Assembly: GCA_017441385.1 (NCBI GenBank) | Contig: JAFRXY010000098.1 | Location: 3,350 to 67,349 of the forward strand | Direction: 5' to 3' | DNA: 64,000 nt | Source of the DNA: Clostridia bacterium | GTDB taxonomy: Bacteria > Bacillota > Clostridia > Oscillospirales > Acutalibacteraceae | In this document: positions 2,723 through 47,947 of the stretch, piece by piece | Position numbering within the stretch: the stretch's first letter is position 1 | How the letters are laid out: every line of letters starts with the position of its first letter | Made by a program: the position numbers and the translations under genes | The notes under the pieces: generated by a model | What the model was told of the DNA's origin: nothing | The model's database searches: none | The model's input: only the letters and a program-made list of their open reading frames with translations

Positions 2723-3997
2723 TTGTCTGTGGCTGTTCTGACAGGAGAACTCTATCGAAGCGTCTGTATGTCCTTTGATCATGAACTGTTGCTTACGGCG
2801 GGGGACAACTCCGCGGATATCCCTGTACTCAGACTGACGGTCATCGGTGACAGGGCTTCGGCGGAAAGAATTCGCAAGTATGACGCGGTCATCTTTCATG
2901 CCGAAAACCATAAGAAATGCAGCATTCTTGACGCGGCGGAAGCTCTCAATGCCAACGGCGCCTGCGCCATGCTGATTTCATCGCAGGACTACGGCGTTTA
3001 TGAGCTTGAACAGCTCCGTATTCTTTGCGCTTCTCTTTCCCTGCCGCTGGTTGAAATTCAATCAACCGATTATCTTCCGGTCCTCATTAATCTGATCAAT
3101 GAGAAGATGAACGGCTTATATGAGGAGTCTCTGGAAATAGGAGAACTGCTTCTGGGAGTGATCAGAATGCCGGAATACTACGGTGATTACGGCTATTACG
3201 GCTATTACAGCTATTACGGCGAATTGCTTGCTGAGCACGGATTTTATGAATATTCCGATTACTGCGTGGCGGTATTTCAATTCGTCAGCAGACGCGACGC
3301 TTTTGGCAGCCGGAAAGATGTGGTGAATGCTTCCAGATGTATCGAAACCGGTCTTGGCATGAAGGCGGCGGCGGCCGTTCTTCCGATGGGTTTTCAAGTG
3401 GCGGTGGTGTTTGCCGACGTTGACACGGATGACGTGGTCCGGGCGTTACGGAGAGGGCTTGACGCCGTTCCCGATGATATTACTTCGGAGTATAGCATTT
3501 ACATCGGCGTGAGCGACCGCGCAAGAGGAATTGACTGTGTGCCGGCTTTGCTGAATCTTGCGGCAAAGACCGCTCTTATGCAGCAGCGCAGGGGAAACGA
3601 AGGCTGTCCTGTAAGGTATTCCGAACATAATCTCAACAAATTTATGGTTTCGCTGAAAGACAGTGAAACCATAGAATCCCTGATTAACGATACTTTGTTG
3701 CAGCTCGCGGAATATGACAGGAAAAATGACACCGATTACATCAATTTCCTGAAGGTTTACTTCCGCAACAACTGCTCCTTGCAGAGAACAGCGAAGGAAC
3801 TGTATATTCACAGAAACTCAGTGAACTACGCTCTGCGCAAGATTGAAAGCATCATCGGCAGGAGCCTTTCGGATATCAACACCAAGGCGGAGCTGATTTT
3901 GGGGCTGGGATTTCTGGAACTGTCGCGTGACGAGCCGTTTTTCAGATGCGAGAAACGAAGTCAGGGAGGTATGATAAGTGAAAATAACCGTGCTTGA
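2723..3997 (+). CDS. PucR/CdaR-family transcriptional regulator
   Basis: C-terminal PucR-type HTH (LQRTAKELYIHRNSVNYALRKIESIIGRSL). The start is uncertain: TTG 2723 or ATG 2768. An internal Tyr/Gly repeat reads YYGDYGYYGYYSYYG. Confidence 0.8.
   Translation: MSVAVLTGELYRSVCMSFDHELLLTAGDNSADIPVLRLTVIGDRASAERIRKYDAVIFHAENHKKCSILDAAEALNANGACAMLISSQDYGVYELEQLRILCASLSLPLVEIQSTDYLPVLINLINEKMNGLYEESLEIGELLLGVIRMPEYYGDYGYYGYYSYYGELLAEHGFYEYSDYCVAVFQFVSRRDAFGSRKDVVNASRCIETGLGMKAAAAVLPMGFQVAVVFADVDTDDVVRALRRGLDAVPDDITSEYSIYIGVSDRARGIDCVPALLNLAAKTALMQQRRGNEGCPVRYSEHNLNKFMVSLKDSETIESLINDTLLQLAEYDRKNDTDYINFLKVYFRNNCSLQRTAKELYIHRNSVNYALRKIESIIGRSLSDINTKAELILGLGFLELSRDEPFFRCEKRSQGGMISENNRA
3173..3220 (+). 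repeat. 9-bp tandem repeat inside the PucR-like CDS
   Basis: Five in-frame units: gaatactac/ggtgattac/ggctattac/ggctattac/agctattac. They encode (E)YY-GDY-GYY-GYY-SYY. Confidence 0.9.
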
Positions 3998-38507: not shown

Positions 38508-39902
38508 ATGAGTTTAGAAAGCAAATTGCAGGAGGTCAGCGATACCAAAGCCGCCGTCAAGAAAACCGTGGCCTACGACCGCCTGTCAAAGCTCTTTGAC
38601 GAGGGTACCATGGTGGAATTCGACTCGCTGGTCAAATCCGAGGGCGGCCTTGCCGAAGTCGTCACCGCATACGGCACGATCGACGGTCTGCCGGCGTATG
38701 CTTTCGCCCAGAACGGCGATATTACCGGCGGCGCTATCTCCAAGGCACAGGCACGCAAGATCAAGAAGGTTTACGATTTTGCCGCTAAAACAGGCGCTCC
38801 TGTCATCGGCATTTACGATTCACAGGGTGCGCGTCTAAAACAGGGCGGCGCCATTCTCGCGGCTTACGGCGACATGCTGCTCTGGAGCAGCAGTCTTTCC
38901 GGCGTGGTTCCGCAGATATCCGTCATCGCCGGCACCTGCGTCGGCACCAATGCCCTCATTGCCAGCTGCGCCGATATTGTGATTGCCGTCAAGGACGTGG
39001 ACTTCGGCATTGAAACCAACGGCAGCGAACGCAAGAGCGAAGACGTGGGGGAGAGTGTACATATTCTTTCCAAGACCATCGACGACGCGCTGGCCAAGGC
39101 ACGCACGCTGGTGGCCATGCTTCCCTCCAACAATCTCAGTGTGGCTCTGAGCGCGGATTATAATGAACCCACCGTTTCGGGTGACGAATTGGACGCTGTT
39201 TCCGCCGCCGTCGGCACCGAAACCCGCGTGATTTCCTACATTATTGCGGGCATCGTGGACGAAGGCAGTCTGGTGGACTTCCAGACGGGTCACGGCAGAA
39301 GCGTGCTGACCGGTCTTGCCACCGTCAACGGGCAGACCGTCGGTGTGGTTTCCACCAGAAGCCGTTACAACAGCGGCAAAATGGACGCGAACGGCGCGGC
39401 GAAGGCAGCCCGTTTCGTGAGATTCTGCGACGCTTTCTCCATTCCGGTCATCACCCTTGTGGATACCTACGGCTTTGAAACCGTACGCGACGCCGCCAAG
39501 CTGATGCACGCCTACGCCGAAGCCACTACCGTCAAGATGGCGATCATCATCGGCGCGGCTTACGGCCCGGCCTTCGTCGCACTGGCGGGACGTGCCGCCA
39601 ACGCCGATTTCACCGTCGCATGGCCGAATGCCGTTATTGCCCCTCTTGCCCCCGAAACCTTCACCGCGATTATGTATAACGATGAGCTGAAGGGCGTGGA
39701 AGATCCGGTCGCCAAGCGTGCCGAGATTGAGGACGATTACAGAAACACCCTCGCTTCTCCCGCCGCTGCGGCATCGGAAGGATATATTGACGACGTGATC
39801 GCTCCGGCAGACACCCGCGCCACTGTTGTGGCAGCGCTGGATATGCTGGCTTCCAAGAAGGTTTCCCGCCTTCCCAAGAAGCATTCCAACATTCAGCTTT
39901 GA
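38508..39902 (+). CDS. acyl-CoA carboxyltransferase (12S/PccB/MmdA-like, divergent and short)
   Basis: It has two crotonase-like halves. The N-terminal half has FAQNGDITGGAISKAQARKI...PVIGIYDSQGARLKQG. The C-terminal half has GQTVGVVS...AAKAARFVRFCDAFSIPVITLVDTYGF. Confidence 0.8.
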   Translation: MSLESKLQEVSDTKAAVKKTVAYDRLSKLFDEGTMVEFDSLVKSEGGLAEVVTAYGTIDGLPAYAFAQNGDITGGAISKAQARKIKKVYDFAAKTGAPVIGIYDSQGARLKQGGAILAAYGDMLLWSSSLSGVVPQISVIAGTCVGTNALIASCADIVIAVKDVDFGIETNGSERKSEDVGESVHILSKTIDDALAKARTLVAMLPSNNLSVALSADYNEPTVSGDELDAVSAAVGTETRVISYIIAGIVDEGSLVDFQTGHGRSVLTGLATVNGQTVGVVSTRSRYNSGKMDANGAAKAARFVRFCDAFSIPVITLVDTYGFETVRDAAKLMHAYAEATTVKMAIIIGAAYGPAFVALAGRAANADFTVAWPNAVIAPLAPETFTAIMYNDELKGVEDPVAKRAEIEDDYRNTLASPAAAASEGYIDDVIAPADTRATVVAALDMLASKKVSRLPKKHSNIQL

Positions 39903-39947
39903 TTGATTCATTATTCATAATGTGACATAGTTCAGGAGGAATTATCC

Positions 39948-40313
39948 ATGAAAAACTTAAAGATTACCGTAAATGGCGTTGCATATGACGTACAGGTGGA
40001 AGAAGTCGGGGGCGACAGCGTTTCCGCTGCTCCTGCCGCACCGGCTCCGGCTGCCCCCAAGGCGCCCGCGGCACCTGCCGCCCCCAAGGCGCCGGTGGAG
40101 GGCGAAACCGTCAATTCACCCATGCCCGGCACGGTGCTTGACGTTCAGATCAAGCCCGGAGATTATGTAAAATCGGGCGATACCCTTCTTGTTCTCGAAG
40201 CCATGAAGATGGAGAACGCCATTGCCGCGCCCAAGGACGGCAAGGTGGTCGAGGTGTACGTCATCAAGGGTCAGACCGTTGAATCCGGCACCGCGCTTGT
40301 CACAATCGGCTGA
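39948..40313 (+). CDS. biotin carboxyl carrier subunit (1.3S/MmdC-like)
   Basis: The N-terminus MKNLKITVNGVAYDVQVEEV resembles the transcarboxylase 1.3S start MKLKVTVNGTAYDVDVDV (from memory). It has an Ala/Pro linker and the biotinylation motif LEAMKMEN. Confidence 0.88.
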   Translation: MKNLKITVNGVAYDVQVEEVGGDSVSAAPAAPAPAAPKAPAAPAAPKAPVEGETVNSPMPGTVLDVQIKPGDYVKSGDTLLVLEAMKMENAIAAPKDGKVVEVYVIKGQTVESGTALVTIG

Positions 40314-40334
40314 TAGCGGACGGGAGGCAAACAT

Positions 40335-41732
40335 ATGGCACAGATCAAAATTACCGAAACGGTGCTGCGCGACGCGCATCAGTCGCTGATCGCCACCAGA
40401 ATGACCACAGAGGAAATGCGTCCCATGCTCGCCGATCTCGACAAGGTCGGATTCCATTCGCTGGAATGCTGGGGCGGCGCGACCTTCGACGCCTGCCTTC
40501 GTTTTCTCAATGAAGATCCGTGGGAACGCCTGAGAACCATCCGCAAGGCGTGCCCCAACACCAAGCTGCAAATGCTCTTCCGCGGGCAGAATATGCTGGG
40601 CTACCGTCATTACGCCGACGACGTGGTGGAATATTTCGTGGAGAAATCCATTGACAACGGCATTGACATCATGCGCATTTTCGACGCGCTCAACGATATC
40701 CGCAATCTGGAAACCTCCATCAACGCCGCCAAGAAATACGGCGGACATGTGCAGGGCTGCATTTCCTACACCACCGGCCCTGTCTTCACACTTGATTATT
40801 TCACAAAATATGCCAAGACGCTGGAGGACACCGGCGCGGACTCCATCTGCATCAAGGATATGGCGGGTCTTCTCACGCCCTATGGCACCTACGACCTTGT
40901 GAAGGCGCTCAAGGAAACCGTGAAGATTCCGATTCAGCTCCACACCCACTATACTTCCGGTCTTGCCTCCATGTCCATGCTCAAGGCCATTGAAGCCGGC
41001 GTGGATGTGGTGGACACCGCTATGTCCCCCATGGCGCTGGGTACGTCCCATCCGGCAACGGAATCCATGGTCGCCGCTTTGCAGGGTACCGAATACGACA
41101 CAGGACTTGACCTCAACCTGCTTGCCAAGATCCGGGATTACGTCGAAACCCTCCGCCAGAAGTATCTCAGCAGCGGTCTGATGAATCCCAAGGTGCTGGA
41201 AGTCGATTCCAAGACGCTGCTCTATCAGGTACCGGGCGGAATGCTTTCCAACCTCGTTTCACAGCTCAAGGACGCCGGCAAGCTGGACAAGCTCAGCGAC
41301 GTGCTGAATGAAGTGCCGCGCGTGCGTGAGGACGCGGGATATCCGCCGCTGGTCACGCCGACCTCCCAGATCGTCGGCACACAGGCCGTGCTGAATGTCA
41401 TCATGGGCGAACGCTACAAGATGACCACCAAGGAATTCAAGGGACTTGTGCAGGGCACTTACGGCAGAACGCCGATGCCCATCGACCCCGCCTTCCGCAA
41501 GAAGATCATCGGTGATCTCGAACCCATCGACTGCCGTCCCGCCGACCTCATCAAGCCGGAGCTGGATACTCTCCGCGACGAAATGACCGAGTATCTCGAG
41601 CAGGAAGAGGACGTTCTCTCCTACGCCTGCTTCGGACAGGTCGCCACCAAATTTTTCCAGAACCGCAGAGACGCCCTGTACGGCATCGACAGCGCCCATT
41701 TCAATTCGGCGGAGAAAGTGCATCCCGTATAA
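40335..41732 (+). CDS. oxaloacetate/pyruvate carboxyltransferase (5S / OadA N-terminal-domain-like, no biotin domain)
   Basis: ITETVLRDAHQSLIATRMTTEEM, ECWGGATFD, IKDMAGLL and HTHYTSGLA (TIM-barrel metal site). At 465 aa it has no fused lipoyl/biotinyl domain. Confidence 0.88.
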   Translation: MAQIKITETVLRDAHQSLIATRMTTEEMRPMLADLDKVGFHSLECWGGATFDACLRFLNEDPWERLRTIRKACPNTKLQMLFRGQNMLGYRHYADDVVEYFVEKSIDNGIDIMRIFDALNDIRNLETSINAAKKYGGHVQGCISYTTGPVFTLDYFTKYAKTLEDTGADSICIKDMAGLLTPYGTYDLVKALKETVKIPIQLHTHYTSGLASMSMLKAIEAGVDVVDTAMSPMALGTSHPATESMVAALQGTEYDTGLDLNLLAKIRDYVETLRQKYLSSGLMNPKVLEVDSKTLLYQVPGGMLSNLVSQLKDAGKLDKLSDVLNEVPRVREDAGYPPLVTPTSQIVGTQAVLNVIMGERYKMTTKEFKGLVQGTYGRTPMPIDPAFRKKIIGDLEPIDCRPADLIKPELDTLRDEMTEYLEQEEDVLSYACFGQVATKFFQNRRDALYGIDSAHFNSAEKVHPV

Positions 41733-41761: not shown

Positions 41762-41802
41762 TCCCCGATATTTTTTCACCGGAAGAATATCGGGGATTTT
41801 TT
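41762..41802 (+). terminator. intrinsic terminator after the biotin-enzyme operon
   Basis: TCCCCGATATT 41762-41772 pairs with AATATCGGGGA 41786-41796, followed by TTTTTT. Confidence 0.75.
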
Positions 41803-41880
41803 AAGATTTATGCGTTTCCCGCCAACCGTTTTTGAAAAAACGGGGTTATACAGATGAAATACAAAAACGAGGTGACTCAT

Positions 41881-42174
41881 ATGAAATTGCATAAGGTTGA
41901 AACCTATGACGCGGGCTATGGGGAAAATTCCCAGAATGCCACGCTGATCAAGGCGGTTGTTGCTACGGCCGCCGCTGCCGCTGTAATGGGAGGGCTGACC
42001 GGCTGTTTCGGCAATTCGATTTCGGGCAATATGGAATACCGGCCGCCTGAGTATGACGGATACATGAGCGTTTCGGATTCGGATTTTTCAAGCGATCCTT
42101 CCGCCTGTTCTTCGGAGAATGAAATGTTTACCCTCGACGGCGATGTGGCTTATGTGCCCTCGGAACAAGGCTGA
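41881..42174 (+). CDS. small acidic lipoprotein-like protein, paralog A (97 aa)
   Basis: GAGGTG RBS lies 6 nt before ATG 41881. Sequence: MKLHKVETYDAGY..., hydrophobic segment ending in lipobox-like LTGC, then an acidic Ser/Asp/Tyr-rich tail. It is paralogous to the next ORF. Confidence 0.6.
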   Translation: MKLHKVETYDAGYGENSQNATLIKAVVATAAAAAVMGGLTGCFGNSISGNMEYRPPEYDGYMSVSDSDFSSDPSACSSENEMFTLDGDVAYVPSEQG

Positions 42175-42191
42175 AACGGAGGTTTTATATC

Positions 42192-42494
42192 ATGGAAAAA
42201 AGAAAGATCGAAAGCTATGACGACGGATATTCCCACAGCGATATCGTGAAGCGGGTGACCGCCGCTGCCTCGGCGCTGCTGCTCTGCGGCAGTCTGACCG
42301 CCTGTCACAGGAACAGCCCGGATGAGAAGATTATGGGCAATATGGTTTATCAGCCGTCCGTGTCGGAATCGGATATTTCTTCGGACGATGATTTTTCATT
42401 GGACGGGGAAGAGCGGTATTATCCCGTTGAGGATGATTCTTCCAGCGAGTCCTACATGGGCGATCTGACCATTGAAGCGTCTGAGTGGGACTGA
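42192..42494 (+). CDS. small acidic lipoprotein-like protein, paralog B (100 aa)
   Basis: GGAGG RBS. Sequence: MEKRKIESYDDGY..., lipobox-like LTAC, and shared motifs GNMxYxP, SVS[DE]SD[FI]SSD, F[TS]LDG[DE] and YxPxE. Confidence 0.6.
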   Translation: MEKRKIESYDDGYSHSDIVKRVTAAASALLLCGSLTACHRNSPDEKIMGNMVYQPSVSESDISSDDDFSLDGEERYYPVEDDSSSESYMGDLTIEASEWD

Positions 42495-43567
42495 GCATCA
42501 TGAATATCTCACTCGTCCTGACCAAGCAGTGCAACCTGCGCTGCCGCTACTGCTTTGAAACGCATGAGAATGTCTATATGTCGGAGGAAACGGCGCTGAA
42601 AGCCATCGATATGGCGGTGAGCGACGGTGGGAATCGTGTGGGCGTTTCCTTCTTCGGGGGAGAACCGCTGCTCTGCAAGCCGCTGATCTACCGATGTGTG
42701 GAATATTCCAGACAATTTGCCGATGTACAATTCAGTTGGAACATGACCACCAACGGACTGCTGCTGGACGACGAATTCCTCCGGTTTGCCGTCAAAGAAA
42801 AAATCGAAATCGCCATGTCCCACGACGGCCTAATGAGCCGGGCCAACCGGCTTTACCCGGGAGGGAAGGACTGCCTTGCCGCGCTGGACGAAAAGCTCCG
42901 GCTGCTGCTGACATACCGCCCCGGCGCCTTCATCATGGCGACGGCTACACCCGATACGGCGGGAACGGTTTTCGAGTCGCTGAAACACCTCATCGATCTG
43001 GGAGTCAGGCGCTTCAATCTGGCGATCGATTCACGCCCCGAAGCCGGCTGGGACGAGGAAAGCATGGATAGTTTGTCCGGACAGCTTGCCATGCTCGGCG
43101 ATCTGATTTTCGAAAAATTCAGCGGGGGAGAGGATATCTATTTCAATCCCTTTGAGGAAAAAATTCTCGACATCACAAAAGACAGGCCGTGCCACGTCTG
43201 TAAACTGGGAATGCGCAAGCCCTACATCGACTGGGACGGGAATATTTACCCCTGCATTCAGTTCGGCGGCGTGCCGGCATACCGCATGGGCAGCGTAGCG
43301 GAGGGCGTTGACCTGTCGCTGAGAGAGGCGATCTATCAAAGCAGCCTGCAAAAGCCGACCTTTTGCGAAGACTGCGCGATGAAAAAAAGATGCGTCAACG
43401 ACTGCGCCTGCCTGAATTTCCAACAGTGCGGCGACATGGCGCAGGTGAGCGGCGAACAGTGCGCCTATCAGCGTATTCTTATCACACGCGCCGATGAAAT
43501 GGCAAGGAAAATGCTGGAAACAGACGAAAAGCATTTTATGAAAAGATTTATTTCAGATACAAAATAA
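42485..43567 (+). CDS. radical SAM enzyme with full SPASM domain (anSME-like architecture)
   Basis: CNLRCRYC (CX3CX2C) close to the N-terminus, and GGEPLL. The SPASM pattern is C-x12-G-x4-C (CKLGMRKPYIDWDGNIYPC) plus C-x2-C-x5-C-x3-C (CEDCAMKKRCVNDC). The start is GTG 42485 (overlapping paralog B by 10 nt) or ATG 42500. Confidence 0.88.
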   Translation: MGLSIMNISLVLTKQCNLRCRYCFETHENVYMSEETALKAIDMAVSDGGNRVGVSFFGGEPLLCKPLIYRCVEYSRQFADVQFSWNMTTNGLLLDDEFLRFAVKEKIEIAMSHDGLMSRANRLYPGGKDCLAALDEKLRLLLTYRPGAFIMATATPDTAGTVFESLKHLIDLGVRRFNLAIDSRPEAGWDEESMDSLSGQLAMLGDLIFEKFSGGEDIYFNPFEEKILDITKDRPCHVCKLGMRKPYIDWDGNIYPCIQFGGVPAYRMGSVAEGVDLSLREAIYQSSLQKPTFCEDCAMKKRCVNDCACLNFQQCGDMAQVSGEQCAYQRILITRADEMARKMLETDEKHFMKRFISDTK

Positions 43568-43577
43568 AAGGCAACAA

Positions 43578-43640
43578 GGCGTTCAACCGCGTATTATCGG
43601 TAAAAAGCAACGGTAAAAAAGCGGTTGGAGCCTTTATTTT
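43578..43640 (+). terminator. probable intrinsic terminator after the rSAM gene
   Basis: GGCGTTCAACCGC 43578-43590 pairs with GCGGTTGGAGCC 43621-43632, with one bulge, one G-U pair and a 30-nt loop. TTTATTTT follows. Confidence 0.45.
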
Positions 43641-43644
43641 TGCA

Positions 43645-43673
43645 TTGCAATTTTATGATAAATCTGATATAAT
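43645..43673 (+). promoter_or_regulatory. sigma-A promoter with extended -10 for the LtaS-like genes
   Basis: TTGCAA 43645-43650, a 17-nt spacer, then TGaTATAAT ending at 43673. Confidence 0.55.
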
Positions 43674-45808: not shown

Positions 45809-47947
45809 GTGAAATATATGAAGGATAAGATTTACAATTTTATTGATGCTGTTGACAGAAACAGCTACACAAGAGATATTATTTCTATGCTGTATCTTCC
45901 CATTTCGCTGGTGTATATGGAAATGCTGGCGAAGCAGAAGATATTTGGGAACGTATTTGACGAAAAGTTTAAATATCTGATACTGCTGACGCTGGGCATG
46001 GGAATGCTGCTCAGCGTGGGAGGCATGCTTCTCCCGGGCAGAATCCGCAGGCGAGTTTATAAGGTGCTGCTGTGTGTGCTGGCTGTGTGGTTCTCGTTTC
46101 ACACGATTTACCACCATAATTTCCACACATTCTTTTCGTGGCAGACGCTGGGACAGGCAGCGGACGTCACGCAGTTCTGGAAGGAGGCCATTGTGGCCAC
46201 CGTCGGCGTATGGTATATGATACTGGCCTATTTCATTCCCTTTGCGCTGATGTGCTTTACCGGCAGATACATTATCGATGATGATGCCGAAAGAAATCTG
46301 CCCTATGCCGGAATCGCCTTTGCGGCGTTTGCAATGTGCTATTTCCCCGCTTTAATCAAGATCAATCAATCAAAATCCAATTCGGGCGAATATACTCCGT
46401 ATTATTACTACACCTTCCTGCAAAGCGATCTTGACACCAGCTTTCAGTATTACGGCATTTTTAATACCACCCGTCTGGATATCAAGCAGCTGCTCTTCGG
46501 CTCACCGGTGGAGGAGATGAATCTCGACGACCCGGTCGAAGACGATCCCCTTCTTCCGGAGGAGGAACAGCAGGTGGAATACGGCTGGAATGTGATGGAT
46601 ATTGATTTTGACAAAGCGGCAAAGTCCACCAAGAACAGCCAGCTCAAGAGTATGGACAAGTATTTCAAATCCGTTCAGCCCACCCGCCAGAACGAATATA
46701 CCGGCATGTTCAAGGGCAAAAATTTGATATTTATCACATTGGAGGGCTTCTCGGATAAAGTAATTGACCGGGATTTTACCCCGACGCTCTATAAGATGTC
46801 CACCGAGGGCTTTGTGTTCAGCAACTTCTATAATTCCGTCTGGGGAGGAAGTACCGCCAGCGGCGAATATTCCAATATGACGGGCAATTTTTACACCACC
46901 GCCAACTGCCTGAAAGCCAGCGGTTCAAAATATCAGCCGCTTGCGCTGGGCAATCAGTTCAAGAAACTGGGCTACAAGACATTTGCCTATCACAACAATT
47001 CCTATACATACTACGGCAGAAACAAGTCTCACCCGAATTTCGGCTACAAGTGGAAGGCGATCGGCAACGGCCTGAAGCTGAAAAGCAACTGCTGGCCGCG
47101 CTCTGACGAGGAAATGGCGGAGGCAACGCTGAAAGAATACATTGGTCTTGATGTGCCCTTCCACGCATATTATATGAGTGTGAGCGGACACGCCAATTAC
47201 TCTTTCTCCGGCAACATGATGTCCGCCCGACACAGAAAAGACCTTCCCGAAAGTCTGCGCACCGCTTCCGAAGGGGTGCAGGCATTCAATGCCTGTCAGT
47301 ATGAGGTTGAGCTGATGCTCAAGGAAATGGTGGACGAACTGGAGGCGGCAGGGGAGTTGGACGACACGGTCTTTGCCATGGCGGCGGACCATTACCCCTA
47401 TGCGCTGAGCGACAGTGAACTGGCCGAGATGTACGGCCTTCCGAAATCCGATATCCGCAACAATTTCGACCTTTACCGCAACTGTTTTATCTTGTGGTGT
47501 TCCTCCATGGAAGAACCGGTTGTGGTGGACAAACCCTGTTCGACGATTGATATTCTGCCCACACTCTCCAATCTGTTCGGTCTGGAATACGATTCCAGAC
47601 TGCTCATGGGCAGTGATATCATGGCGGAGGGCGACCATTTCGCTCTGCTTAAAGTCAACGGCTGGTCATGGATCAGCACACAGGGCGAATACAATTCGGC
47701 TGCCAAGAGATTCACGCCGAGTGACGACTGCGTCCTTTCGGAATCCGAGCAGTCGGATTATATCAAGCGCATGAATACCATTGTCAAGGGCAAGACCACC
47801 TATTCCAAGCAGATTCTTGACAAGGATTATTACAAGCATATCTATTCATTCATCACCAAGAAGAATTCCGACAGTCAGGATTCCGCTAGCAGCACGGAGC
47901 AAGACAGCGCGGAACAGACCGACGGCTCTCAGACAGCCAACAACTAA
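45809..47947 (+). CDS. LtaS-family membrane protein, paralog 2
   Basis: Colinear with paralog 1 along its whole length, with the same VWGGSTASGEY, LEGFSDKVID and AADHYPY motifs. It has an extra Ser/Asp/Gln-rich C-terminal tail. The start is GTG 45809 or ATG 45818. Confidence 0.85.
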   Translation: MKYMKDKIYNFIDAVDRNSYTRDIISMLYLPISLVYMEMLAKQKIFGNVFDEKFKYLILLTLGMGMLLSVGGMLLPGRIRRRVYKVLLCVLAVWFSFHTIYHHNFHTFFSWQTLGQAADVTQFWKEAIVATVGVWYMILAYFIPFALMCFTGRYIIDDDAERNLPYAGIAFAAFAMCYFPALIKINQSKSNSGEYTPYYYYTFLQSDLDTSFQYYGIFNTTRLDIKQLLFGSPVEEMNLDDPVEDDPLLPEEEQQVEYGWNVMDIDFDKAAKSTKNSQLKSMDKYFKSVQPTRQNEYTGMFKGKNLIFITLEGFSDKVIDRDFTPTLYKMSTEGFVFSNFYNSVWGGSTASGEYSNMTGNFYTTANCLKASGSKYQPLALGNQFKKLGYKTFAYHNNSYTYYGRNKSHPNFGYKWKAIGNGLKLKSNCWPRSDEEMAEATLKEYIGLDVPFHAYYMSVSGHANYSFSGNMMSARHRKDLPESLRTASEGVQAFNACQYEVELMLKEMVDELEAAGELDDTVFAMAADHYPYALSDSELAEMYGLPKSDIRNNFDLYRNCFILWCSSMEEPVVVDKPCSTIDILPTLSNLFGLEYDSRLLMGSDIMAEGDHFALLKVNGWSWISTQGEYNSAAKRFTPSDDCVLSESEQSDYIKRMNTIVKGKTTYSKQILDKDYYKHIYSFITKKNSDSQDSASSTEQDSAEQTDGSQTANN

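Follow-up and report, generated by a model that had tools for sequence, protein, structure and literature searches.

The three-gene operon at 41881–43567 of the DNA analysed here (the window, 64,000 nucleotides in full) encodes two small paralogous peptides, pepA and pepB, and a radical SAM/SPASM enzyme that lacks an RRE. Judged by sequence comparison, the operon is one instance of a widespread, undescribed family of modules in which a Met1-anchored tag on a partner protein always accompanies the enzyme in its clade; the partner proteins are covered by no curated model. The reading that we prefer, and to which we give a probability of roughly 55%, is that the tag acts as a leader, that the tails of the peptides are modified in the cytoplasm and that the peptides are afterwards exported by Sec, lipidated and cleaved by signal peptidase II.

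All genes and their features lie on the + strand. The 5′ boundary of the unit is the intrinsic terminator of an upstream decarboxylase operon (41762–41802, + strand; a 16-bp stem followed by a T-run), which folds with −22.9 kcal/mol and z = −4.9 (41762–41796 plus the T-run). On the other side of the operon, folding identified a hairpin with a U-rich 3′ side (UUUAUUUUU; about 43571–43643, + strand; −28.1 kcal/mol, z = −5.1), which is the probable terminator and 3′ boundary. A promoter-like site at 43645–43673 follows the hairpin, with 10 of 12 positions matched and an extended TG. The initial annotation had proposed a self-contained unit with a fresh promoter behind it, and the two flanking structures, both with z of about −5, and the quality of the promoter match bear this out; the coordinates and motifs that it gave for the three genes were likewise verified in every case. 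A sigma-70 scan of the interval between the terminator and pepA found no promoter of the sigma-70 type. The leader region 5′ of pepA contains a perfect palindrome, CCGTTTTT-GA-AAAAACGG (41826–41843), which could be an operator.

pepA (97 residues; 41881–42174) is preceded by the ribosome-binding site GAGGTG at 41869–41874, and pepB (100 residues; 42192–42494) by GGAGG at 42178–42182. A start for pepA at the upstream ATG 41854, giving a 106-residue ORF, is unsupported by homologues. The two proteins are 50% identical and align from residue 1, consistent with the paralogy initially claimed. Compared with the orthologues at two related loci (L001 and L081), dN/dS is 0.08–0.10 for pepA, 0.19–0.20 for pepB and 0.06–0.14 for the enzyme, with the caveat that synonymous sites are saturated in these comparisons. 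A protein identical to pepA (P0121) is present on 14 public contigs, and in all the relatives that were inspected both small ORFs immediately precede the enzyme gene. pepA and pepB are real genes under purifying selection, as had been supposed, and they belong to a family that remains unrecognized: Pfam and NCBIfam returned nothing significant for the peptides or for any of the long, short or Tat-type partners described below.

Each peptide comprises a tag, a hydrophobic segment and an acidic tail. The pepA tag spans residues 1–14 (MKLHKVETYDAGYG; 41881–41922), with Y9, G12 and Y13 as invariant columns, and its counterpart in pepB lies at 42192–42233. The hydrophobic segment of pepA (41953–42006), assigned from its motif and from a helix in the AF2 model, ends in LTGC (Cys42), and that of pepB (42255–42305) ends in LTAC (Cys38), just as first described. 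Both satisfy the lipobox criterion ([LVI][ASTVI][GAS]C closing a hydrophobic segment behind a positively charged n-region), with Ala-rich segments that are preceded by K or KR, and all 27 family members compared have the Cys. Rule-based lipoprotein predictors place this Cys within about residues 15–35, a range beyond which positions 42 and 38 lie; the Cys falls so late because the N-terminal tag precedes the signal. We consider pepA and pepB to be probably exported, lipid-anchored acidic peptides, the lipidation being inferred. The pepA tail (42007–42171) has 55 residues and a net charge of −10 and is predicted to be disordered: the AF2 model (mean pLDDT 59) has one helix (residues 17–37) and no other regular structure. 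The pepB tail (42306–42491) has a net charge of −15. Gly-centred repeats occur three times in the pepA tail, as ISGNMEYRP (42019–42045), YDGYMSVSD (42052–42078) and LDGDVAYVP (42133–42159), and in the pepB tail as IMGNMVYQP (42330–42356), LDGEERYYP (42399–42425) and YMGDLTIEA (42453–42479), with G-N-M-x-Y-x-P at residues 49–55 of both proteins. There are two Cys residues in each peptide, none of them within CX3D/E repeats, and the motif [CS]x[PA]xR is absent from both.

The tag of pepA and pepB reads M-K-h-x-K-h-E-x-Y-[DE]-x-G-Y-[GS]. Five positions of the short family are invariant (Met1, Y9, G12, Y13 and the lipobox Cys), with Y9, G12 and Y13 in the tag. On the evidence of alignment, the pepA/pepB N-terminus (MK.xK.E.Y..GY) is a local form of a wider tag, M-K-h-x-P-V-x3-5-P-x-Y-P, that is fixed at Met1; P0240, P0256, P0260 and P0261 are intermediates that bridge to the canonical P-x-Y-P form, and a Tyr at residue 13–14 is universal across the tag-bearing partners. 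The conserved n-region that had been noted as unusual is in this light the defining feature of a family far larger than the two peptides. A tag HMM run against 1.18 million six-frame residues gave 67 matches, of which 65 are on the enzyme strand in ORFs adjoining the radical SAM gene, nearly all directly upstream of it; within the 64-kb window pepA and pepB were the sole matches, albeit weak (E of about 1–2). The tag is present at the 54 best-matching radical SAM loci (about 40 by HMM, more by eye) and at only one of 26 more distant ones.

We define the module as a radical SAM gene with, directly upstream, an ORF whose product begins with a Met1-anchored ..Y..[PG].Y[PGS] and continues into a hydrophobic segment for export or anchoring; pepA and pepB meet this definition, which was made in the present analysis and does not correspond to a published family. 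A module consists of one enzyme and one to three putative substrates. The enzyme clade and its tag-bearing upstream partners are spread over about ten phyla, and the taxa include Akkermansia, Kiritimatiellae, Planctomycetes, Acidobacteria and many gut and rumen Clostridia. Every close relative has a tag-bearing ORF directly upstream of the enzyme, with or without flanking decarboxylase or LtaS-like genes, and distant relatives with entirely different flanks have it in the same place; the pairing, on whose co-occurrence across genomes the initial annotation had said its proposal would turn, is kept while the flanks change. Across the loci compared, no conserved protease or transporter accompanies the pair. 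One locus, L092, also encodes a soluble 78-residue protein with a tag-like N-terminus.

Within the clade the tag precedes lipoprotein signals, Cys-less anchors and, at L046, a Tat signal (TIGR01409, 23.3 bits; cutoff 16.7). The long-type partners (220–330 residues) contain a confidently modelled folded domain (AF2 pLDDT 87), for which Foldseek found no match in the PDB at E ≤ 0.001 and which gave no clue to function. Apart from the tag and the anchor, they have at most a loose G-C-V-x-V-x-P-P resemblance to the other partners. Conservation is higher in the tag than in the tail of the short family or the domain of the long family, and tandem paralogues have a common tag and divergent tails. From these sequence patterns we infer that the tag behaves like a leader.

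The repeat in the tails has the consensus h-x-G-[DEN]-h-x-Y-x-P. Its h-x-G-x-h core is enriched in the family (155 observed, compared with 27 ± 5 in shuffles) and in phylogenetically distant short partners (15 compared with 2.6 ± 1.5), although the motif spans few residues and the distant partners do not keep the [DEN] position. A profile search with the peptide family over 1.84 billion proteins also detected two membrane proteins, P0259 and P0265 (E = 2e-5 and 8e-4), whose match is confined to the hydrophobic segment and the tail and which carry a different, Cys-rich cytoplasmic domain. Their genes are followed by that of an unrelated 216-residue, single-cluster radical SAM enzyme resembling the activases of glycyl-radical enzymes. 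Among 78 relatives of the Cys-rich domain, the activase-like gene was found by script after 13 of the 16 acidic short-tailed proteins (a tail of at most 130 residues and at least 20% Asp plus Glu), or 14 of 16 when L102, where the activase-like open frame overlaps the partner gene, is counted. It follows only three of some fifty other proteins, and all three exceptions are at loci that also hold an acidic short-tailed partner. A 2 × 2 table based on length only gives a Fisher p of 4e-7, with the reservation that the loci are not phylogenetically independent. The repeat therefore appears, as far as sequence comparison can tell, to recur independently with a different radical SAM enzyme.

Whether the tail or the tag is the site of modification is the point on which the most serious alternative rests. 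The tag could itself be the substrate, with the Tyr at residue 13–14 (x-Y-[P/G/S]) or its neighbours modified on the cytoplasmic N-terminus; we regard this as a minority possibility that deserves to be kept in view. A variant could be that the modification controls export or the fate of the signal peptide, or yields a bioactive signal-peptide fragment. The Tyr is the sole residue common to the short, long, Tat-type and Cys-less-anchor partners, the tag is conserved above the tail or domain in both families, and a fixed distance from Met1 would suit an active-site register. Several radical SAM/SPASM enzymes act on aromatic residues (PqqE, MftC, DarE and the cyclophane-forming enzymes), which also speaks for this possibility. 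Since the long-type partners share little else, a target common to the whole clade could indeed be the tag. However, members with a lipobox would lose the tag together with the signal peptide, so that it would be absent from the mature product; the identical tags and diversified tails of tandem paralogues fit a leader-plus-core layout; and the same tail repeat in combination with another cytoplasmic domain and another radical SAM enzyme points to the tail. The initial annotation had left the N-terminal motif and the tail side by side as candidate sites. Of these, the tail repeats are favoured as the target, the N-terminal motif is more likely a recognition tag and the chemistry is unproven.

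The enzyme (355 residues; 42500–43567) was identified from its motifs and HMM matches. Its ORF opens at GTG 42485, and the likely start is ATG 42500, 5 nucleotides after the pepB stop, because all homologues begin MNISL. The Cys pattern is C11-x3-C15-x2-C18 (the CX3CX2C motif, 42530–42553), then FFGGEPLL (GGEPLL, 42656–42673), C234-x12-G-x4-C252, C289-x2-C292-x5-C298-x3-C302 and C321, with the SPASM Cys region (C231–C321) at 43190–43462. The C-terminal residues conform to the SPASM pattern of PF13186/TIGR04085 (CX9-15GX4C, a gap, CX2CX5CX3C, a gap, C); they are invariant in 43 homologues and line up with the corresponding domains of CteB and anSME. A hydrophobic N-terminus is lacking from the enzyme. 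Membership of the radical SAM superfamily is supported by PF04055 (51.9 bits; threshold 29.5), and the Pfam SPASM model PF13186 falls short of its gathering threshold (17.7 compared with 21.5 bits), the motif being present in a divergent sequence. The highest of the maturase models are NF047865 for PapB (169.7 bits, cutoff 340; the Hungatella relative scores 220 bits), a Nif11-type maturase model (149 bits), TIGR03974 for the SCIFF maturase (127 bits, cutoff 425) and TIGR03906 for QhpD (115 bits, cutoff 453), followed by TIGR03942 for anSME (65 bits, cutoff 349.45) and NF010321 (50.7 bits, cutoff 441); the enzyme misses all family cutoffs at least twofold. It matched CteB (5WGG) at 110 bits (1.6e-30), scores against anSME were only 48 and 65 bits, and the family profile matched 5WGG at 209 bits over both the radical SAM and SPASM domains. 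Residues 5–319 align with CteB residues 101–433, so that the N-terminal RRE of approximately 100 residues is missing. The original description of an RRE-less enzyme with a complete SPASM signature was accurate. Its likeness to anSME holds for this architecture and fails for the sequence, which is nearer to the thioether-forming RiPP maturases, with PapB and CteB at the top of the searches; the relatives found by HMM or structure match are peptide or protein maturases.

Given this sequence similarity, a ranthipeptide- or sactipeptide-like reaction has to be considered, in which a thioether would join the "lipobox" Cys to a nearby Asp, Glu or Asn and the product would be anchored in the membrane without being lipidated. 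The enzyme has CX3CX2C, GGEPL and the SPASM Cys motif in common with CteB and PapB, all of its best matches (PapB, the Nif11-type maturases, SCIFF, QhpD and CteB) form thioethers, and the Cys, which no member of the short family lacks, often has acidic or amide residues after it. Nevertheless, we think this unlikely. The enzyme differs from CteB and PapB in having no RRE, in scoring below every cutoff and in the extra Cys231, which is near-invariant in its family and absent from CteB. In CteB the open Aux-I iron site binds the substrate thiolate; Cys231 aligns with a position that we take to be the fourth Aux-I ligand of anSME. A thioether through the lipobox Cys was down-weighted because Cys231 probably completes Aux-I ligation and because some partners have no such Cys (L043 has none after the tag, and L009, L017 and L018 have no anchor Cys). 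The Cys moreover stands in L-[TA]-[GA]-C behind an Ala-rich stretch, as in a textbook lipobox, and pepA and pepB have an export signal and no Cys-rich core. PapB precursors contain repeated Cys-X3-Asp/Glu motifs, and their leader is presumed to be recognized through the RRE (PMC9413430). Neither feature is found here, with no CX3D/E repeats in pepA or pepB and no RRE in the enzyme.

It is just as improbable that the small proteins are merely tethers or regulators that dock the enzyme through the tag, leaving it to act on a lipid, an envelope precursor or LtaS-like proteins. The tag is cytoplasmic and membrane-adjacent, the operon has LtaS-like genes behind it both in the window and at L001, L081, L092 and L094, and the soluble protein with the tag-like N-terminus at L092 would fit such a role. 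Against this, LtaS-like genes are missing from L083, L085 and L087–L089 and none turned up at the distant loci that were looked at, whereas the partner occurs at all of these; SPASM enzymes of this branch modify peptides or proteins; and mere tethers would need neither conserved extracellular repeats nor paralogue diversification.

That the enzyme is an anSME serving the two PF00884 "sulfatase" genes directly downstream, as its RRE-less architecture and length, this proximity and the distant relatives in sulfatase-rich phyla might suggest, is effectively refuted by the TIGR03942 score and by the lack of an FGly motif in the peptides and neighbours: the catalytic position of the PF00884 proteins reads GGSTASGEY, presumably with the LtaS-type Thr, and their sole [CS]x[PA]xR is an isolated SAAKR (second protein, residue 630); their L081 orthologue also matches LtaS_N; they follow the promoter-like site behind the hairpin; and the synteny is lost in L083 and L085. 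By sequence, the neighbours are LtaS-like and not FGly targets.

We return to the preferred reading, modification of the tail under guidance of the tag. The cytoplasmic enzyme would recognize the extreme N-terminal tag of each pre-peptide, which sits in the n-region of a lipoprotein-type signal peptide, and 5′-deoxyadenosyl radical chemistry would act on the disordered acidic tail while the pre-peptide is still in the cytoplasm, most likely at the Gly-centred repeat h-x-G-[D/E/N]-h-x-Y-x-P. The two auxiliary clusters inferred for the enzyme suggest an oxidative reaction of −2 Da, for example a cross-link or dehydrogenation. The activase-like enzyme has the SAM cluster only, and because of this difference we did not adopt a single reaction common to both radical SAM classes, such as epimerization. 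Sec would then export the modified peptide, Lgt would lipidate the lipobox Cys and signal peptidase II would remove the tag with the signal peptide, so that general machinery would take over the work usually done by a RiPP protease and transporter of the system's own. Two small, acidic, modified lipopeptides would result, displayed at the outer membrane surface of the cell. That the enzyme modifies the peptides before export, as initially suggested, is made probable by the conserved pairing; no modification has been observed, and the role of the peptides as substrates, the target residue and the chemistry are all inferred. Points against the proposal are the late position of the lipobox Cys and the fact that the nearest characterized enzymes all use a substrate Cys, of which the tails of pepA and pepB have essentially none.

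Parts of this pathway have counterparts in known systems. AtsB, one of the anSMEs (structure 4K36), modifies its sulfatase before Sec export, and resembles the enzyme in being a cytoplasmic, RRE-less radical SAM/SPASM protein of about 360 residues that acts on proteins destined for export; its C/S-x-P/A-x-R target is absent from the peptides and from the catalytic positions of the PF00884 neighbours. QhpD is a radical SAM/SPASM enzyme whose substrate, a small subunit with a leader, is modified while still cytoplasmic and only later enters the periplasm. This subunit, QhpC (the gamma-subunit of quinohemoprotein amine dehydrogenase), receives Cys-to-Asp/Glu thioethers and is served by a protease and a transporter of its own. 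The window enzyme has TIGR03906 among its top matches, but the score is far below 453 bits and the module contains no dedicated protease or transporter. A conserved motif N-terminal to an ordinary signal peptide is also found in the KxYKxGKxW signal of serine-rich glycoproteins and the ESPR of autotransporters, which belong with particular routes of export, accessory Sec in one case and slowed Sec targeting in the other. These resemble the peptides in placing an extended signal peptide on Ser/Asp-rich exported proteins and differ in their motif and in having no known link to an adjacent radical SAM enzyme.

The layout parallels that of the MNIO "DAG-RiPPs", whose modification in the cytosol is followed by processing through Lgt, LspA and Lnt (PMC13056109). 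For these and the bufferins, the general lipoprotein or Sec pathway exports the precursor, removes the leader and lipidates, without a dedicated protease or transporter (PMC13056109, PMC12452194). RiPP precursors with a Sec signal have been described as rare (PMC12452194), and MNIO-type precursors can be anything from a peptide to a protein above 30 kDa (PMC13056109, PMC12452194), a spread of sizes much like that of the short and long partners of the present enzyme. The window likewise has precursors with a signal peptidase II-type signal adjoining a signal-less cytosolic modifying enzyme. It differs in that this enzyme is a radical SAM/SPASM protein rather than an MNIO, the only class shown so far, in that a tag stands before the signal peptide and in that the cores are without Cys motifs. 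Leader-independent or follower-peptide systems were expected in that work, which mined MNIOs with a note on AIPs and in whose text the term "radical SAM" is absent (PMC13056109). Our search of the literature on radical SAM/SPASM enzymes with a lipoprotein, signal peptide or lipobox turned up no account of such a system, only the MNIO precedents.

More tentatively, and with less confidence than in the pathway itself, we suggest that the tag ahead of Sec, lipoprotein and Tat signals may address exported proteins to an RRE-less radical SAM/SPASM enzyme, that the repeat may be a radical target acquired independently by the SPASM-type and activase-like classes, and that the products may form a new class of modified surface lipopeptides in gut and rumen anaerobes. 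If the proposed pathway is true, it would be the first radical SAM counterpart of the RiPP–lipoprotein hybrids, with a leader-like tag that can be fused before an ordinary export signal and with Sec, Lgt and LspA in place of a dedicated protease and transporter. The operon offers a directly testable, putative enzyme–substrate pair for new radical chemistry on Cys-poor, Asp/Glu/Tyr-rich peptides, and the combination of a Met1 tag with an export signal provides a sequence rule for finding further substrates that standard RRE-based or precursor-based RiPP mining would miss.

The three genes of the unit lie on the + strand where the initial annotation had placed them, as confirmed by the ORF coordinates: pepA at 41881–42174 (97 aa), pepB at 42192–42494 (100 aa) and the radical SAM gene, whose ORF opens with a GTG at 42485 and ends at 43567. 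The homologues of the enzyme (351–355 aa) all begin MNISL, and the probable start is therefore the ATG at 42500, 5 nt past the pepB stop. Shine–Dalgarno sequences precede both pepA and pepB. Folding energies and a promoter scan bear out the proposed limits of the unit. At the 5′ end is a terminator with a T-run (41762–41796; −22.9 kcal/mol, z = −4.9) and at the 3′ end a hairpin with a U-rich tail (approximately 43571–43643; −28.1 kcal/mol, z = −5.1), followed by a promoter-like site with an extended TG (43645–43673; 10/12 matches). A sigma-70 search of the pepA leader found no promoter of this type, so the unit may depend on another sigma factor or on a regulator. A perfect palindrome (8+8), CCGTTTTT-GA-AAAAACGG, is located between the upstream terminator and pepA (41826–41843), and a second copy of CAAAAACG is present in the pepA leader at 41862–41869.

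The two peptides align from residue 1 with 50% identity, and the motifs described for the unit are all present, namely the lipobox and GNMxYxP (residues 49–55) in the peptides and CX3CX2C (residues 11–18), GGEPLL and the SPASM Cys pattern in the enzyme. Lack of conservation of the small ORFs would have counted against the proposal, but they are real genes: relative to the orthologous loci L001 and L081 (enzymes 77 and 71% identical, respectively), the window gave dN/dS values of 0.08–0.10 for pepA, 0.19–0.20 for pepB and 0.06–0.14 for the enzyme, with saturated synonymous sites, which is indicative of purifying selection. A profile built from eight peptides retrieved 51 clusters among 5.8 billion proteins, one of them containing an exact copy of pepA from a 'Clostridia bacterium' MAG; all are unannotated. 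The short peptide family is narrow, as a profile search through all 1.84 billion representatives gave only 34 matches. The representative search also returned P0257, a 314 aa protein that matches the profile weakly and has two lipoprotein-like units, each beginning with ..IK.YD.F.NEEINLKK and then carrying a lipobox, ..GG[MV][ST]SC; it may represent a distant or convergent tag family from a low-GC organism.

One or two short peptides are encoded directly 5′ of the enzyme in every close relative inspected. Upstream of the unit in the window is an operon (38508–41732) for a carboxyltransferase, a biotin carboxyl carrier protein and an OadA-like subunit, which looks like the methylmalonyl-CoA or oxaloacetate decarboxylase type and directly precedes the peptide genes in the majority of close relatives. 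Downstream are two tandem paralogous LtaS-like membrane proteins of family PF00884 (43738–45789, 683 aa; 45809–47947, 712 aa), which are syntenic with the unit in close relatives only. Both flanks are retained at loci L001, L081, L092 and L094, locus L085 retains the upstream genes without the LtaS-like genes, and at locus L083 the flanks are entirely different and the peptide(s) and enzyme are still present. Since the pairing persists while the flanks change, the conserved unit is the peptide(s) plus the enzyme. One relative, L092, has an additional 78 aa ORF (3329–3565) between pepB and the enzyme gene, with a tag-like N-terminus, MDKIRIEHYEGAF, and no hydrophobic segment; its product might act as a decoy or regulator, or be a soluble substrate.

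The assignment of the enzyme as a radical SAM protein is supported by PF04055 (51.9 bits), and its SPASM Cys motif is complete, with the Pfam SPASM model scoring slightly under threshold. By sequence it is closer to thioether-forming peptide maturases than to anaerobic sulfatase-maturating enzymes (anSMEs). The best NCBIfam matches are peptide or protein maturases, none of which reaches its cutoff: PapB (170 bits, cutoff 340), Nif11-type (149, cutoff 519), SCIFF (127, cutoff 425) and QhpD (115, cutoff 453). Function as an anSME can be rejected, given a score of 65 bits against a cutoff of 349 and downstream PF00884 proteins that have their own promoter-like site and show GGSTASGEY in place of an FGly motif at the catalytic position; they are thus not the bona fide FGly sulfatases whose presence would have undermined the proposal. 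The nearest solved structure is CteB (PDB entry 5WGG), followed by anSME. Residues 5–319 of the enzyme align with residues 101–433 of CteB; because the alignment starts only at residue 101, the N-terminal RRE of CteB is missing, as had been claimed. The SPASM region contains nine invariant or near-invariant Cys residues across 43 homologues. Cys231 aligns with the anSME Cys that serves as fourth ligand of Aux-I, a position occupied by Leu in CteB. The open iron site in CteB binds the substrate Cys. We infer that full Aux-I ligation, with Cys231 filling the ligand position, would fit Cys-poor substrates. Judged from its sequence, the enzyme falls into no curated family; it is RRE-less and divergent from its relatives CteB and PapB.

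A scan with the enzyme profile, using one genome per species, gave 80 loci. In most of the 54 best-matching loci, the ORF directly 5′ of the enzyme begins with M-[KE]-[IVL]-x-P-[VI]-x3-5-P-x-Y-P, and a hydrophobic segment follows this tag after 0–30 residues. These loci span Clostridia, Kiritimatiellae, Lentisphaerae, Planctomycetes, Acidobacteria, Chloroflexota, Bacteroidetes, delta-proteobacteria, Akkermansia and Hydrogenedentes. Starting from Met1, the N-termini can be aligned with almost no gaps, and all share a Tyr at residue 13 or 14. In the window family the tag has lost one residue and shows P-to-K/G changes; the proteins P0240, P0256, P0260 and P0261 bridge this variant to the canonical form. 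The conserved n-region that had seemed unusual in the two peptides is therefore part of a tag found across many phyla. All six frames of 92 loci and the window (1.18 million residues) were scanned with an HMM built from residues 1–18. Of its 67 matches, 65 are on the enzyme strand among ORFs adjoining the radical SAM gene, nearly all directly 5′ of it, and pepA and pepB are the only matches in the window. With one exception, the tag is absent from the 26 more distant radical SAM loci (L055–L080).

The tag precedes classic lipoprotein signals, as in Akkermansia (MKIEPEKNDKKPLYPVIAVAAVGAILALSSC), Cys-less anchors in Kiritimatiellae and, at locus L046 (3450–3995), a bona fide Tat signal (TIGR01409, above its cutoff), which implies that the same addressing tag serves proteins that are exported folded. 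The twin-arginine arrangement (..Y.G..YPD....RRRFLAGLG..) of L046 was also observed at L057 and L060. The tag-bearing partners are either short (50–130 aa, as are pepA and pepB) or long (220–330 aa), and no Pfam or NCBIfam model matches any of them. Both types occur in cultured organisms: Ruminococcaceae bacterium KHP2 (L021) has two short partners and Hungatella effluvii DSM 24995 (L016) a long one. Tandem paralogous partners ahead of a single enzyme are common (loci L004, L010, L011, L021, L023, L048 with three copies, L088 and L089). The long partners (family P0172–P0239, including L016 3180–3998 from Hungatella effluvii) share a conserved domain, APhFxHGxGxGxFGC...PPxFLSEEEA, with the invariant motifs HGxGxGxxGC, LSEEE, FYDP and a C-terminal LRxQVxDFxxWLKGQG. 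An AF2 model of a long partner is confident (pLDDT 87), and it has no fold match in the PDB at E ≤ 0.001. One database record names a long-family member 'metalloprotease' without a supporting model.

The AF2 model of pepA contains a hydrophobic helix at residues 17–37 and no other regular structure. The tails of pepA and pepB are acidic (net charges of −10 and −15, respectively), and each has three copies of a repeat, h-x-G-[D/E/N]-h-x-[Y/V]-x-P. The h-x-G-x-h core occurs 155 times in 71 family tails compared with 27 ± 5 in shuffled tails, a count that overstates independence because the sequences are related, and 15 times in 14 distant short partners compared with 2.6 ± 1.5 (shuffle maximum 8).

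The repeat also occurs in a sister system. Two membrane proteins, P0259 and P0265, match the peptide profile in the hydrophobic segment and tail only; a 60-residue Cys-rich cytoplasmic domain replaces the tag, and neither protein matches a curated family. Each is followed by an overlapping gene for a 216 aa radical SAM enzyme with a single cluster. This enzyme has no relationship to the SPASM enzyme and is similar to glycyl-radical-enzyme activases, with a TIGR02494 score of 103 bits that falls short of the cutoff (174). Scanning for the Cys-rich domain yielded 78 metagenome loci, in which the activase-like gene lies after proteins with short acidic tails carrying L-x-G-[DE]-V-x-Y-x-P repeats (for example ELEGDVAYVPE at L097 versus TLDGDVAYVPS in pepA). 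In a scripted test it followed 13 of the 16 proteins with a tail of ≤130 aa and ≥20% Asp+Glu, or 14 if the overlapping frame at L102 is included, compared with only three of approximately fifty other proteins, and all three of those loci also hold an acidic short-tailed partner (length-only 2×2 table, Fisher p = 4 × 10−7, uncorrected for relatedness). Two systems with different enzymes and different cytoplasmic domains thus link the same extracellular repeat to a radical SAM enzyme. The sister loci (L090 137–1071, L091 4001–5144, L095–L100, L102, L103, L105, L108, L110, L111 and L128) encode membrane proteins with a Cys-rich, zinc-ribbon-like cytoplasmic N-terminus, ..C.[YH]KG.C.GTCP.CE.., and short acidic L.G[DE]V.Y.P tails, and the activase-like gene comes next, in many cases overlapping. 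The same zinc-ribbon domain also heads many larger membrane proteins (200–310 aa) on human-gut and rumen metagenome contigs (L112–L172), some with TonB-C-like (..PEFPGG..) or other extracellular domains; no radical SAM gene is adjacent to these larger proteins.

We propose that the tag behaves as a leader peptide, standing in for the missing RRE–leader pair, since it is cytoplasmic, fixed at Met1, common to paralogues with divergent tails and ahead of any export signal. A survey of the variable flanking genes found no conserved protease or transporter near the module. On these grounds, the enzyme would bind the tag and modify the tail while it is still in the cytoplasm, Sec would export the peptide, Lgt would lipidate the lipobox Cys and, in lipobox-bearing members, LspA (signal peptidase II) would cut away the signal peptide together with the tag. 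Recurrence with two unrelated radical SAM enzymes makes the tail repeats the best candidate target; that they are modified is inferred. The main rival explanation is that the universal tag Tyr, the sole feature common to every partner type, is modified instead. The two auxiliary clusters of the enzyme suggest an oxidative (−2 Da) reaction, and whether hydrogen is taken from the Gly Cα, the Cβ of the following Asp/Asn/Glu or Tyr is undecided.

The same logic is seen in the DAG-RiPPs (2026), in which MNIO enzymes modify precursors with lipoprotein signals and Lgt, LspA and Lnt complete the processing (PMC13056109), whereas the enzyme here is a radical SAM/SPASM protein. That study, which mined MNIO neighbourhoods (plus an AIP note), makes no mention of radical SAM enzymes (PMC13056109). 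RiPP precursors with Sec signals have been termed rare (PMC12452194). A literature search turned up no publication that describes the tag, either partner family or the tag–enzyme pairing. Taken together, the peptide–enzyme pairing and the wider tag family support and extend the initial reading of the unit as peptides with an RRE-less radical SAM/SPASM enzyme. While its chemistry is unknown and both modification and lipidation are inferred, the module is best read as one of ribosomal peptides that are altered by radical SAM enzymes and make use of the lipoprotein pathway, with a previously unrecognized addressing tag.
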